Assembly: GCA_025455765.1 (NCBI GenBank)
Contig: JALOLX010000002.1
Coordinates: 1 to 30,702 of the forward strand
Source of the DNA: Flavobacteriales bacterium
GTDB taxonomy: Bacteria > Bacteroidota > Bacteroidia > Flavobacteriales_F > PHOS-HE28
Direction: 5' to 3'
Length of the DNA stretch: 30,702 nucleotides
Below the pieces are notes generated by a model. It did no database searches. It saw nothing but the letters and a program-made list of their open reading frames with translations, and was not told the origin of the DNA. Below are positions 4,036 to 17,073 of the stretch, piece after piece. The position numbers and the translations under genes are program-made. How positions within the stretch are numbered: the first letter of the stretch is position 1; every line of letters starts with the position of its first letter.

Positions 4036-7000
4036 ATGCGAGCGCTCCGTTCTGCCCTGTTTGCCGTGCTCCTGTTCGTGGGTCCTGCGAGCGCGGCACA
4101 AGCGGTCCAAGCCCTGGAGAACCGCGGTCAATGGCCCAACGAGGTGAAGTTCCGTACCGAACTGAACGGGGCGGTGCTCTGGTTCGAGGAGCGTTCCGTG
4201 GTAATGGATCTATTTGATGCCAACGCAGCAGCCAGCGCGCATGGCAACATCGCAGTACGACCTCGAGGCACCATCGACCGACACGCCGTAAGACTGCGCT
4301 TCCTATCCGCCACACAGAACTCCTCGTGTACAGCGGACAGTCTCCGTCCTGGGATCCATCACTTCCTCCTCGGCGATCGGCCTGAGCACCATGCGCGTGA
4401 CGTTCGCGCTTTCGCCCGTATCCGCTACAGCAACGTGGCGCCCGGATGTGATGCGGTGTTCCACACGGACCGCGCCGCCGCCAAGTACGACCTGCTCGTC
4501 CATCCCGGTGCCGATCCCGAAGCCATCCGCTTCACCTATGAGGGCGCTGATGAGATCAGCATCAGAGGAGCCTCCCTCGTGGTCAACACCAGCTTGGGGC
4601 GCATCACCGAACACATTCCCATCGCCTATCAGACCATCGCTGGCGAACATGTGCCCGTGCGCTGCGCCTACATCCAACGCAAGGATGGCATCGGATTCTC
4701 GCTGGGCCAGTATGACCGGTCGCTGCCACTGGTGATCGACCCTACGCTCGCCTTTGCCACGTATTCCGGGTCGTTCAGCAACAACTTCGGCTACACCGCC
4801 ACCTTCGATCGGGCGGGGTTCCTCTACGCCGGAAGCACCGCTTTCGGCAACCAATACCCCGTCACCCTGGGCGCCTATCAAGCTGCGTTCGCCGGGGGCA
4901 TCGGTCAGGGGAACAACGGCGGCACCGATATCGTCATCACCAAATACGATACCACGGGCAGCTTCCTGGTGTGGAGCACGTACCTCGGCGGCGCGCGTGA
5001 TGAGATGCCCCACAGCCTGATCGTCGATGACAACGACGAGCTCCTCGTCCTCGGCACCACCGGCTCATCGAATTTCCCCATGGCACCATCAGCGTACGAC
5101 AACACCTTCGCGGGCGGTGCTGCCATCACGCCGTCCGGCCTCGGTGTGTCGTTCCCCACAGGCACCGATATGGTCGTGGCCAGGCTCAGCTCAACTGGTG
5201 GTGCATTGCTCGGCTCTACATACCTCGGCGGTGCAGCCAACGACGGACTGAACACCGCACCGGGTCTGCGCTTCAACTATGCGGATGAGGTCCGTGGCGA
5301 AGTGCTGCTCGACGCGCAAGGACGTGTATGGGTGGTGAGCTGCACCCAAAGCACCAATGCACCAGTGACCGCAGATGCCCTGTTCGCCTCGTTCCAAGGG
5401 GGCGCTCAGGATGGCTATGTGGCGCGCTTCAATGCGCAGCTGACCGAGCTGCAGTTCGCCAGCTACATCGGTGGTTCGGCAGCGGACGCTTGTTACAACG
5501 GCGCGTTCGATGGCAGTGGAAGCCTGTTCATCACCGGAGGAACGGCAAGCAGTGACCTCCCATCTTCAACAGATGCCGCGCAGCCCCTCATCGCAGGCGG
5601 CCCAGCTGATGCCTTCGCCGCGCGCATCTCCACCGCACCCTTCACCTTGGATGCGCTCAGCTATTGGGGCTCCACCGGCTATGACCAGAGCTACTTCGTG
5701 GAATGCGACACGGAAGGGAACGTCTTCCTGTTCGGGCAGACCAATGCGCCCAGTGGAGCACTGATCGTGGACGCGAACTACCAGATACCGAGCGGCGGGC
5801 AATTCATCACCAAGCTGAACAACGACCTTTCCACCGTGCTGCTCAGCACCAGAACGGGTCGTGGCGATGGTGATCCGGACATCTCGCCCACCGCGTTCCT
5901 CGTGGATGTGTGCAACAAGATCTATACCAGCGGCTGGGGTAGTTCCCCCGGACTGGGCGGGAACCTCACCACGCAAGGACTGCCTGTTACAGCCGATGCA
6001 CACCAGACCATCACGGATGGCAACGACCTCTACCTCGCCGTGTTCGACATCGACATGAGCGCGTTGATCTATGCCACCTACTATGGCGGCGGGCTCAGCC
6101 CCGAACATGTGGACGGCGGCACCAGTCGGTTCGATCGCAGGGGGCGCGTGTACCAGAGCGTATGCGCAGGATGCCAGAACAACGATGACTTTCCCACTTC
6201 ACCCGGTGCTTGGAGCGCAACCAACAACAGTGCCGGCTGCAACAACGGTGTGCTGAAGTTCGATTTCGATGCGCCCCTCGTCATCGCCGCCTTCCAAGCA
6301 GCCGATACCGTTTGTGCACCCGGTAGCGTGGCCCTCATCAACCAGAGCAGCGGTGCGGCCAGCTACGCGTGGGACTTTGGTGACGGCAGCACCTCCACCG
6401 CCAGTACACCCGAACATACCTATGCCGTACCGGGAACCTATACCATCCGACTGATCGCTCGCAACGACAATGCCTGCAACCTGGCTGATACGGCCTTCCG
6501 CGAAGTGACGATCCTGCCACAGGCACCTCCGGTCACAGCCATGAACGACACGCTCATCTGTGGGCCGATCGCTGCGTTCGACCTGATCGCTGCGAGCAAC
6601 GGCACCGCTTCGTTCTGGCAGTGGAGCACGAGCCACGCCTTCTCGGATGTCCTCAACAGCAGCCCGGCAGACAGCACCGCCACCATCGCACCGGCCGTAA
6701 GCGGCACCTACTACGTGCGCGTCGGTAACGGACCGGTGTGTCGCGCGATCGATAGCGTGCAGGTCATCGTATCGCTCGGGAACATCGCAGTGGTGGGCGG
6801 CGGTGGCATCTGCACCGGCGACACCATCACACTCTCCGTGCTCGGTGCCGATGCAGGCTCGACCTTCAGTTGGGAACCGGCCGACGAAGTGATCACTGGC
6901 GCCGGGACCGCCAACATCCGCGTAGCACCGACCAACGCCATCACCTTTGGTGTATCGGTCGTTGCACCCAGCGGCTGCGCTTGGAGCGGTGAGGCCTCGA

Positions 7001-7490
7001 TCACCGTATCACCCATTGTCGCCACCACCGTTCAAGCAAGTGGTGACCCACTGCTGATCCTGCCCGGTGGCACCACGCAGTTGAATGCGTTGCCCATAGG
7101 ACCAGGCATCACCTACAACTGGTCGCCTTTCGGCCCGCTCAACAACAGCAGCATCCCCAACCCCATAGCCACCCTGCAAGAGACCACACTGTTCACAGCA
7201 ACCATCACCGACGGGGTCTGTACCAAGAGCGATACGGTGCTCATCAAGGTCCATGAACTGGTCTGTGGCTTCCCGGACATCTTCGTTCCGAACACCTTCA
7301 CGCCCAACGCGGACGGGACCAACGACCTGCTCTTCGTGCGTGGCAATAACATCCAGCGTCTGGAATTCCTGGTGTTCGATCGTTCAAGGGACTGCCGGTC
7401 GACCCGGCCGTGTTCGTCTATCACCTCACCGTGGATTGCGGTGATGGTCAGCACTACTTCACCAAAGGCAACGTGTCCGTGATCCGATGA
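4036..7490 (+). pseudogene. T9SS type-B cargo (SBBP/beta-propeller repeats, PKD, Ig-like) with a frameshifted, internally deleted CTD; the ORF as called ends at 7482
   Basis: The CTD starts normally (IFVPNTFTPNADGTNDLLFVRG...EFLVFDR). The rest (FKGLPVDPAVFVYHLTVDCGDGQHYFTKGNVSVIR*) lies in another frame, 7383-7490. The expected WG...GWDG segment is absent from both frames. Confidence 0.8.
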
Positions 7491-8557
7491 AGCAGCAGGC
7501 CGGTCAATACATGCATACAGATGCCCGACGAAGCCGGCATCTTGGGTTGCATGTCCTTGTTGCGCTGTTGCTCATCTCCGCTGCGCATACTTCGCATGTG
7601 CGTGCCCAGGACATCCACTTCTCCCAGTTCTTCCATGCTCCATTAGCCTTGGGCCCGGGCTTCATCGGTGCGTTCGATGGCACCCATCGGTTCAACGCCA
7701 TCCATCGCCAACAGTGGCGCGCTGTCACCGTTCCCTATCGCACCTTCGGGCTGGGCTGGGATCACCGCATTCCATGGCGTGGACAACGGCTCGGTGTGGG
7801 AGCTTGGACCTACAACGACCGCGCGGGGGACAGCCGCTTGAACACCTTCCATTTCAGCCTCGGTGTGAACTGGACCCAACCCCTGGACAAGGCCGCTGAA
7901 CACACCCTCAGCGTCGGTGGTCTGCTAGGCTTCAGCTCACGTTCACTCGACCGCTCCGACCTCAGCTTCGACGCCCAGTACAATGGCTTCTTCTTCGACC
8001 CACAGCGGCCTACCGGCGAAGGATCTCAGCGGGATGCCATGATGCACACCGACCTGCATGCCGGTGTCCGATACCGCTGGATCAGATCGTCGAGAAGCGA
8101 TGTGCAAGTGGGGGCTTCGTTCTTCAACCTCACCTCCCCTCGTATCGGCTTTCTTGGCGATCCCGGAGAACCGCTGGACCGTCGGCTGGACCTTCACGTG
8201 CTGACCACGTTCCCTTTGGGCGACAAGCTGGATGTACTGCCGGTGGCCCGATACATGCGCCAAGGCACCTTCCAGGAATTCGACCTGGGCGCCGACCTCC
8301 GTCACACGCTGTTGCATCGCTACGGCCTGCATCGCGCCCTGCGCATAGGACTCTACCTCCGGGCACGCGATGCCGGTTACGCCCATGCCGCACTCGAATA
8401 CGACGACTGGACCTTTGGGCTCAGTTACGATGTGAACACCAGTCGCCTGGTGCCAGCGAGCCGCTACCGGGGCGGTGTGGAGCTGAGCGCGATCTATATC
8501 CTACGCCCCAAAGCGGCCATCCCTGAGCGCTACCGTGCATGTCCAGACCAACGATGA
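7487..8557 (+). CDS. PorP/SprF family T9SS membrane protein (module 2)
   Basis: AQDIHFSQFFHAPLALGP, HRQQWRAVTVPYRT and FGLSYDVNTS motifs. ATGA overlap with the reconstructed cargo stop at 7488-7490. A downstream ATG is an alternative start. Confidence 0.9.
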   Translation: MKQQAGQYMHTDARRSRHLGLHVLVALLLISAAHTSHVRAQDIHFSQFFHAPLALGPGFIGAFDGTHRFNAIHRQQWRAVTVPYRTFGLGWDHRIPWRGQRLGVGAWTYNDRAGDSRLNTFHFSLGVNWTQPLDKAAEHTLSVGGLLGFSSRSLDRSDLSFDAQYNGFFFDPQRPTGEGSQRDAMMHTDLHAGVRYRWIRSSRSDVQVGASFFNLTSPRIGFLGDPGEPLDRRLDLHVLTTFPLGDKLDVLPVARYMRQGTFQEFDLGADLRHTLLHRYGLHRALRIGLYLRARDAGYAHAALEYDDWTFGLSYDVNTSRLVPASRYRGGVELSAIYILRPKAAIPERYRACPDQR

Positions 8558-15783: not shown

Positions 15784-15810
15784 ACCAACCGCACCCGTTC
15801 GATAACTCCC

Positions 15811-15849
15811 GAAGGCCCCGGCGCAGCACGTCGGGGCCTTCGCTATTTT
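15811..15849 (+). terminator. Intrinsic terminator
   Basis: GAAGGCCCCG(GCG) / (CGT)CGGGGCCTTC stem followed by GCTATTTT. Confidence 0.75.
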
Positions 15850-15870: not shown

Positions 15871-16287
15871 ATGAACGGCACCTTCCACCTCGCATTCGCC
15901 ACCACCGACCTCAAGCGGATCAAGGCCTTCTACGGTAAGTTCCTCGGCTTCAAAGAGGGCCGCAGCGCCGACACCTGGGTGGATTACGACTTCTTCGGCC
16001 ATCAGCTCACCATCCAGGAGGTGCCCAAGCTGATCAAGACCGCCCGCATCTACAATCCCAAGAGCAACGTGCCCAGTGACCATTGGGGCATTGTGCTGGG
16101 CATGGCCGATTGGAAGAAGTTGCGGGACAAACTGAACAAGGTGGGGCACCCCTTCTTCATAGAGCCGCGTACCGTAATGAAGGGTGAGGTGGGTGAGCAG
16201 GTGAGCCTCTTCATCGAGGATCCCGACGGGCACGCCATCGAGTTCAAGGCCTTCCCCGAGCCGGAGAACATCTTCAAGAAGGGATGA
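15871..16287 (+). CDS. VOC (glyoxalase/extradiol dioxygenase-like) family protein
   Basis: FHLAF...FYGKFLG..EGRS..WVDYDFFGHQL, HWGIVL, FIEDPDGHAIEFKAF. Confidence 0.88.
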   Translation: MNGTFHLAFATTDLKRIKAFYGKFLGFKEGRSADTWVDYDFFGHQLTIQEVPKLIKTARIYNPKSNVPSDHWGIVLGMADWKKLRDKLNKVGHPFFIEPRTVMKGEVGEQVSLFIEDPDGHAIEFKAFPEPENIFKKG

Positions 16288-16344
16288 CAGCGGGCCGCGT
16301 TACGTTCTGGTGAGCAGCGCATTCCAGCTTCAAACCCGAACCCC

Positions 16345-16542
16345 ATGAAGACCCGCACTGCGCTCCTGTTCGTCCTGGCCGGTTACACGGTGATCACCAC
16401 CGGCGGCCTGTTCAAGATCATGCATTGGCCAAGCGCCAACATGCAATTGCTCATTGGTGCCACGGTCCAAGCGGTGGGGCTGCTGGCCTTGCTGGGCCAG
16501 GTGATGCGCCACCACTCGCTGCGGGCGCTACTGGACAAATAG
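16345..16542 (+). CDS. 65-aa two-helix membrane protein resembling the GldL/PorL N-terminal domain
   Basis: GGLFKIMHWPSANMQLLIG matches the GldL/PorL GALFKIxHWPG..ML..G motif. Two hydrophobic segments. Confidence 0.75.
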   Translation: MKTRTALLFVLAGYTVITTGGLFKIMHWPSANMQLLIGATVQAVGLLALLGQVMRHHSLRALLDK

Positions 16543-16549
16543 GTGCCGG

Positions 16550-16945
16550 TCAGTAGGTGCGCATGGCCACCAGGCCACCCTGCTCGTCGTAGCGCTCACC
16601 GGTGCGCAGTTCGCCTTCGGAGTGCCCCAAGCGGCCCAGCACCACATTGGTATGACTGCGGAACTCCCAGGTGCCTTGCCGCTCGCCTTTGCTGAAACGC
16701 GCTTGGGCCAGGAGCACACCCGTGTCGCTGTATTGCTTCCACACCCCATCGCGACGGCCATGGAGGAACCCGCCCATCTCGTGTACCCGACCGTTCTCGT
16801 AGTACGTGATGAAATGGATGCGCCCCGCCTCTTCGTACCGGGTGGACTTCAACGTACCATCGGGCCAATGCTCCTGTGATAGCAGGGTCTGGGCCGACGC
16901 CCATGTGCCTGAGACCAGGGCCAGAAGAAGGAGGATGGTGCGCAT
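16550..16945 (-). CDS. Secreted MORN-variant repeat protein (YwqK-like)
   Basis: Signal peptide MRTILLLLALVSGTWASAQ and repeats YYENGRVHEMG..LHGRRDGVWKQY / GERQGTWEF. Start placed at ATG 16945 rather than 16996. Confidence 0.8.
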   Translation of the reverse strand: MRTILLLLALVSGTWASAQTLLSQEHWPDGTLKSTRYEEAGRIHFITYYENGRVHEMGGFLHGRRDGVWKQYSDTGVLLAQARFSKGERQGTWEFRSHTNVVLGRLGHSEGELRTGERYDEQGGLVAMRTY

Positions 16946-16975
16946 GGTGGAACAGTTGTACATCCTTGATACGTC

Positions 16976-16983
16976 CAAAGATA
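16976..16983 (-). promoter_or_regulatory. Candidate -7 promoter element for the MORN-variant gene
   Basis: Reads TATCTTTG on the minus strand (TAnnTTTG), about 30 nt upstream of ATG 16945. Confidence 0.6.
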
Positions 16984-17073
16984 GCACAATGTTCACCCCG
17001 AGTTAACATGGATCTAACATTGGAAAATGGACCGTGGGGTGTGAACAACCCCAGGACCCGCCACTCAACAAGA

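Follow-up and report, generated by a model that had tools for sequence, protein, structure and literature searches.

A stand-alone GldL_N hairpin of the 65-residue GldL-related family, with Gln at the site of the motor Glu, in a Flavobacteriales genome

Gene content of the locus

We analyzed a window of 30,702 nt, that is, the whole stretch of DNA taken from contig JALOLX010000002.1 of a Flavobacteriales bacterium. The genes and features are summarized in Table 1. An open reading frame, whose range in the table includes the stop codon, encodes a protein of 65 residues, designated mini in this study. Genes for an arginine decarboxylase, a deoxyhypusine-synthase-like protein, an acidic protein, and a VOC/glyoxalase protein precede mini in this order. 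A convergent MORN_2 gene is located on its 3′ side, followed by genes for a LexA-like repressor and three ORF6N proteins and then by dinB. No RNA element was found at the locus.

The strong terminator-like hairpin separates the acidic-protein gene from the VOC gene. The same consensus scan detected no terminator-like site on the plus strand between the VOC gene and mini. The order VOC-mini-MORN is kept in the genus, and the start codon of mini overlaps the VOC stop codon by 4 nt in three relatives. The VOC gene is probably a co-transcribed partner of mini, in the genus only. At eleven loci outside the genus, from other families, protein clustering identified no recurrent neighbour, and Pfam assigned the neighbours to unrelated housekeeping families only. 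Linkage of mini to gld genes was never seen in the window or at these eleven loci.

Two paralogue types of mini, a and b, occur in tandem in some genomes of the genus. Type a overlaps the VOC stop codon by 4 nt and type b follows approximately 50 nt later (L018:8359-8799, L008:1124-1572, and L019:7974-10335). Which type is retained (a, b, or both) differs among lineages of the genus, and in one genome two copies are separated by 2 kb. The window carries type b only.

The MORN_2 gene is fast-evolving, being 58–80% identical where its neighbours are 90–99% identical, and it and mini make up a variable segment bounded by the VOC and lexA-like genes. The genes for the PorP/SprF proteins and the DUF7948/PKD/CHU_C-type protein comprise a T9SS cargo module 8–15 kb upstream of mini.

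Table 1 Features of the mini locus and an orphan GldM paralogue of the genus. Coordinates refer to the window unless a locus is named.
Feature	Position	Strand	Basis or remark
porP/sprF genes	886-1809 and 7487-8557		Nearest T9SS-type genes to mini
Large DUF7948/PKD/CHU_C-type protein	4036-7482		Precedes the second porP/sprF gene
Terminator-like hairpin	15810..15842	+	14 pairs, 11 of them G-C, then a T run; consensus scan, pattern match only
VOC/glyoxalase gene	15871..16287	+	Pfam Glyoxalase; 57 nt upstream of mini
mini gene	16345..16542	+	ORF; Pfam GldL_N match; 65-aa orthologues of 55–78% identity; lineage-specific changes: one here, 11 in the sister pseudogene
Helix 1, residues 3-26	16351..16422	+	AlphaFold2 model; column counts; GldL alignment
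Periplasmic turn motif LFKIMHWPSA, residues 22-31	16408..16437	+	Identity to own GldL; column counts
K24 codon	16414-16416	+	Within turn motif
H27 codon	16423-16425	+	Within turn motif
Helix 2, residues 31-55	16435..16509	+	AlphaFold2 model; GldL alignment
Gln42 codon, CAA	16468-16470	+	Aligned to the invariant GldL Glu
Short basic cytoplasmic tail, residues 56-65, ending LLDK	16510..16539	+	Model helix 57-64; column counts
MORN_2-repeat gene	16550-16996	-	Convergent; stop 7 nt from the mini stop
Orphan GldM2	L080:3605-5224	+	Genome G011, contig C12; also G016 C2 1195674, G019 C3 181757, and others

Fold of mini and comparison with GldL

The Pfam profile GldL_N (PF22827) matched mini with a score of 25.6 bits (E = 1.4e-5), above the gathering cut-off of 24, and aligned residues 13–44 of mini with profile positions 5–36. 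This HMM match agrees with the sequence-only reading of the locus, which had regarded the protein as a miniature GldL. The PorL/GldL model TIGR03513 aligned with residues 13–44 only and scored 24.1 bits, below its cut-off of 68.3. The GldL_N resemblance of mini can be regarded as more than chance, because more than 60 cluster representatives share the same length and motif. A holin or small hydrophobic toxin was considered as another identity of mini and was rejected, as a PHROGs search gave nothing below E 0.19 and the gene stands in a housekeeping context with no lysis cassette.

An alignment-based AlphaFold2 model of mini had a mean pLDDT of 96, with helices at residues 3–26, 31–55, and 57–64. 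A basic N-terminus, MKTR, precedes helix 1, and helix 1 contains two glycines, G13 and G20, that are common to the family and GldL. Mini is a single module, and its chain ends 14 residues after helix 2. When the model was compared with the PDB using Foldseek, the top rows were the PorL/GldL chains 7sat_D and 7sau_E (rmsd 1.1–1.3 Å over 44 columns), with E-values that are non-significant for so short a hairpin. A profile of the 65-residue family searched against 177,635 PDB sequences retrieved GldL/PorL chains only, the best being 7sau_C (E = 1.8e-10), and in this alignment the Gln column of the family sits on the GldL Glu. Mini is a two-helix hairpin, which we infer to lie in the inner membrane with both ends in the cytoplasm. 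Its identity as a stand-alone GldL_N hairpin, belonging to the 65-residue GldL-related family, is firm.

The closest known system is GldL/PorL, the stator of the proton-driven GldL5GldM2 (PorLM) motor of the T9SS and gliding (PDB 6YS8, 7SAT, 7SAU, 7SAX, and 7SAZ). Mini shares with it the two-helix N-in/C-in hairpin, the FKIxHWP periplasmic turn with a Lys and a His that matter in F. johnsoniae, the helix-1 glycines, and a polar residue at the same depth of helix 2. GldL/PorL differs in having an invariant Glu, Tyr13, a cytoplasmic domain of approximately 200 aa, and a gld operon, whereas mini is without all four. It also evolves several times faster than GldL and is dispensable. For F. johnsoniae GldL, K27 and H30 of the loop seem to make contact with the periplasmic domain of GldM, and in the solved motor Glu49 points to Arg9 of GldM (10.1101/2020.05.11.089193; 10.1101/2022.01.28.478170). 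The GldL E49D mutant of F. johnsoniae is null (10.1101/2020.05.11.089193).

We compared mini with the GldL of the same genome. The host assembly is fragmented (2.3 Mb in 384 contigs, 72% complete), and its gldK-gldL-gldM cluster, encoding a GldL of 262 aa, is located on a separate contig, C150. Residues Y16, K30, H33, and E48 of this GldL correspond to the published Y13, K27, H30, and E49, as deduced via the Flavobacterium-type GldL of relatives. The sequence-only reading had described a kept turn motif with K24 and H27 at GldL K27 and H30, Gln in place of the motor Glu, the loss of Tyr13 and of the cytoplasmic domain, and the absence of gld neighbours. All of these points held in the comparison. 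The LFKIMHWP of mini is identical to that of the own GldL, with K24 and H27 falling on K30 and H33. IGATVQ42 of mini aligns with IGLSTE48, so that Gln42 occupies the position of own Glu48 and F. johnsoniae E49, and the spacing from Lys to the polar residue is 18 residues in mini, equal to that from Lys to Glu in the own GldL. V10 stands in the Tyr column, the cytoplasmic part is only the 14-residue tail, and gldK, gldL, gldM, and gldN are absent from the window, the true gldKLM genes being those on C150. Judged from these features, mini cannot be a working stator subunit, because it has no carboxylate, Tyr, or cytoplasmic domain.

Family members, related modules and the Glu site

A word-indexed search identified nine 65-residue orthologues with 55–100% identity to mini, all of which have Gln42. 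A search with a diverse alignment identified 70 small proteins, several of which, from Hymenobacter, Flavobacterium, and Pontibacter, are named "GldL-related protein" by NCBI/UniRef; other small proteins among the 70 are misnamed GldL. Mini is a member of the family that bears this database name. Several 64–65-residue Bacteroidota clusters with GldL_N were also present in the ESM Atlas. NCBIfam has no dedicated model for the 65-residue family and gave only a weak PepG1 row, for a different family member, and we found no paper on 65-residue GldL-related proteins in the literature. When 400 genomes were sampled evenly across the phylum, approximately 10 had full-length members, and these all belong to one class. 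The named relatives of mini are uncultured Flavobacteriales MAGs.

Column counts were obtained from 62 cluster representatives of 59–68 aa, which have in common the N-terminus MK-x-[RK], the turn motif, and the C-terminal tail. The residues kept in the family, G13, G20, F23, K24, H27, W28, A31, and G38, are all present in mini. His is found at position 27 in all 62 representatives, and position 24 is Lys in 57 and Arg in 5. L63 is kept in 55 of the 62 and position 62 is Phe or Leu in 54, giving a C-terminal signature, [FL]-L-[DNE]-x, which the LLDK of mini fits and which has no counterpart in GldL. The lineage of mini has Ser30 where most members have Gly, and Gln at position 52 where 48 of the 62 have Lys. 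The helix-1 column that holds Tyr in GldL is occupied by L, F, or V in the family and by Y in 5/62.

The low-entropy columns of helix 2 in the family are A31, L35, G38, 42, 45, L49, and 52. Their 4-3-4-3 spacing places these conserved columns on one helical face, which in mini reads A31-L35-G38-Q42-G45-L49-Q52. By alignment, this is the face carrying Glu49 in GldL.

The residue at the Glu site was surveyed in the related groups of proteins. All 37 true GldL proteins sampled across the class have Glu, and the repeat modules described below have a hydrophobic residue, mostly L, F, or A. Position 42 of the 62 family representatives is Q in 28, E in 23, and K in 8, with L, N, and M once each. On these counts, position 42 can be described as polar in the family, yet Gln as a lineage variant and not a family hallmark. 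The survey of Glu and Gln at this site, which the sequence-only reading had proposed, thus upheld Glu in full-length GldL and spoke against Gln as the mark of the stand-alone proteins. Of the two groups in the tree, mini falls in the smaller, whose members almost all have Gln42.

When 1.84 billion representatives were searched exhaustively with the profile, 827 matched at E ≤ 0.001. Among the best 150 of these 827, which were parsed, the module occurs once in proteins of approximately 65 aa, in two to three copies in proteins of 110–270 aa, and again in two to three copies in proteins of 330–500 aa. All four 330–500-aa proteins that were scanned contain GldM_1st (PF12081), at scores above the cut-off in P0023, P0027, and P0041 and below it in P0019. 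In another protein, P0157, which is a histidine kinase with HisKA_3 and HATPase domains, a single GldL_N hairpin makes up the whole membrane part. Comparison with hhalign gave the 65-residue family a probability of 99.2% against GldL N-termini and of 99.8% against the repeat proteins, the latter value being biased as the repeats had been collected with the mini profile. The repeat proteins have the same hairpin module and turn motif as mini. They differ in having two to three modules per chain, a hydrophobic Glu site, and in many cases a periplasmic or kinase domain, and they do not have the tail of the 65-residue family.

We constructed a quick maximum-likelihood tree from 159 modules and 58 columns, which is weakly supported and poorly resolved. 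The 37 GldL sequences were placed together on one side of a branch (SH-aLRT 94), and the minis were mixed with the repeats; mini itself fell in an 18-member mini group adjoining repeat modules. A recent truncation of GldL as the origin of mini was rejected, as the tree places the minis with the repeats and apart from GldL. The stand-alone GldL_N hairpin proposed by the sequence-only reading therefore stands, but not as a one-off degenerate GldL, since it belongs to a fixed-length family that groups with non-motor repeats. The family is widespread and old, with a fixed length of approximately 65 aa, and is one single-module branch of the larger set of GldL_N hairpins. Mini is ordinary for this window, as one accessory member of this family.

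Among the small proteins, P0204 (59 aa) looks like a real truncated GldL, as its N-terminus is of the GldL type and both Tyr and Glu are present. Three minis of 68 aa, P0200–P0202, have a four-residue loop insert typical of Flavobacterium GldL, which hints at gene conversion with gldL or co-evolution of the loop.

Constraint, loss and possible role of mini

Mini changes rapidly within the genus. Its identity to the window copy is 32–49%, vs 82–88% for the GldL hairpin (residues 1–66), approximately 80% for the VOC protein, and 94% for the deoxyhypusine-synthase-like protein. The closest record is the MAG Flavobacteriales bacterium AC1.1, whose flanking proteins are 95–99% identical to those of the window. 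Its mini orthologue (L074:2936-3216) is a pseudogene with CTG as the start codon, TAG as codon 2, and two 1-nt deletions that shift the frame, and G20, K24, and W28 are replaced in this dead copy. The nucleotide identity to AC1.1 is 78–79% over 16297–16694, a segment that spans mini, vs 90–94% in the flanks. With seven other orthologues as the reference, the window copy shows one change of its own and the AC1.1 copy 11. Mini is patchily distributed in the genus, in approximately 19 of 58 genomes. From the one change against 11 and the dead copy in AC1.1, it follows that mini is under constraint in this genome, yet dispensable on a short time scale.

Mini is not a broken GldL and is probably no stator subunit either. 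Our preferred reading, which we put forward tentatively, is that mini is an accessory hairpin of the GldL_N superfamily with a non-conducting docking or oligomerising role, a GldM-like protein being the most probable type of partner. Such a role is suggested by the contact surface that mini conserves, namely the turn and one face of helix 2. Mini keeps the contact parts of GldL, that is, the turn FKIxHWP, the two glycines of helix 1, and the helix-2 face around a buried polar residue, and is missing what the motor needs, that is, Tyr13, the cytoplasmic domain, and, in this lineage, the carboxylate. A partner in the membrane or the periplasm would be bound via the conserved turn and the helix-2 polar stripe, and Gln42 would permit no proton transfer. 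By analogy with the sister modules covalently fused to GldM_1st, the most plausible class of partner would be the first periplasmic domain of a GldM-like protein, together with its helix. The turn motif may be structural and not a GldM contact, since it is also kept in the kinase-fused module and in repeats without a detected GldM_1st. Two further results speak against the docking reading: no neighbour of the gene recurs beyond the genus, and in the assembled 72% of the genome GldM_1st occurs once, in GldM itself, so that a separate GldM-like partner is not in evidence.

The main rival to a docking hairpin is a self-contained small membrane protein, which would form a homo-oligomer via its glycines and buried polar residue and have a role unrelated to GldLM, for example in membrane organisation or as a small pore, with the turn as an inherited element for folding and insertion. 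The variable housekeeping context of the gene is consistent with such a protein, as are fast-evolving lipid-facing residues beside a single conserved stripe and a polar residue that tolerates Q, E, and K. A histidine kinase has the same module as its sole membrane portion, and the family occurs together with a single GldM_1st protein in four complete genomes. Against this, the four-residue periplasmic turn, in which His is invariant and Lys and Trp are nearly so, resembles a binding surface more than a mere turn, and related modules are repeatedly fused to GldM_1st; we regard the self-contained oligomer as rather unlikely. A gene of no present use, drifting toward loss as a leftover ORF, would account for the pseudogene in AC1.1, for the low identity to AC1.1 over the segment spanning mini, and for the patchy occurrence in the genus. 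It is hard to reconcile with a window copy that keeps every family-invariant residue and shows one change of its own where the sister shows 11, or with a length of 65 aa that is fixed across distant lineages, and seems very improbable.

The sequence-only reading had suggested a motor brake or decoy, in which mini takes the position of GldL in the GldL5GldM2 ring or sequesters GldM, and stalls or tunes the T9SS/gliding motor. It would act through its Gln and its missing cytoplasmic domain, like a dominant-negative micro-protein. K24 and H27, the counterparts of the GldL loop residues that appear to touch GldM, are kept; the conserved helix-2 face is the Glu49-bearing face of GldL, with the same Lys-to-polar spacing as in the own GldL; and a Gln subunit should not conduct protons, because GldL E49D is null. 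All carriers that were checked have GldM (10/10) and GldL (5/5), and this assembly (72% complete) yielded no GldM_1st protein other than GldM. The co-occurrence with GldL is uninformative, however, since GldL is present in 59 of the 61 genomes of the class. A precise fit into a conserved ring is made less likely by the fast-changing helices, the interchange at position 42, the lack of linkage, and the easy loss. The identity of 32–49% is hard to fit into a tightly packed ring whose GldL hairpin is kept at 82–88% in the genus, and a Lys at position 42 would face Arg9 of GldM. Mini groups with non-motor repeats and not with GldL, is never beside gld genes, and is a pseudogene in AC1.1, which retains two gldM genes. 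We consider a brake or decoy improbable. A broader view, in which the 65-residue proteins, as cheap and fast-evolving micro-proteins, would naturally mimic the stator by entering or capping complexes of GldLM or of orphan GldM paralogues, with E, Q, or K setting the number of proton-carrying subunits in a ring, is likewise improbable; if true, it would let Bacteroidota adjust gliding and type IX secretion genetically.

If a brake were the right reading, dominant-negative micro-proteins and flagellar brakes and clutches would follow the same logic, in which a truncated paralogue poisons an oligomer or a small protein stops a rotary motor. The flagellar brakes YcgR, EpsE, and MotI have no homology to mini, and the analogy is functional only. 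Known flagellar brakes act on the rotor or on the cytoplasmic face of the stator and are not known to mimic a stator.

The GldLM motor, one of the few rotary machines driven by ions, has no known regulator. The 65-residue GldL-related proteins are a small, widespread family that keeps the contact elements of a stator while the proton-carrying site varies among E, Q, and K. If the family binds the motor, it supplies natural mutants that need no construction, and a possible regulator. If it does not, its members show that the hairpin of GldL serves as a general membrane module well beyond the motor, whether by itself, in repeats, or on kinases.

A second GldM gene, GldM2, is present in 33 of 58 genomes of the genus and is a lead only as the partner of extra GldL_N modules. 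The raw co-occurrence of GldM2 with such modules in the genus is 30/33 vs 4/23, and independent contrasts on the GldM tree gave approximately 3.3 in the same direction vs 0.1 in the opposite direction, of 5, which is non-significant (p ~ 0.25). No second GldM was found in this genome or in the sister species G488, both of which carry mini, and AC1.1 has two gldM genes including the second GldM, yet a dead mini. GldM2 is a full-length paralogue located after gldN and an ABC-F ATPase gene, with no GldL of its own. None of the four GldM domains is missing from it, and Arg9, Tyr17, and the transmembrane helix are retained.
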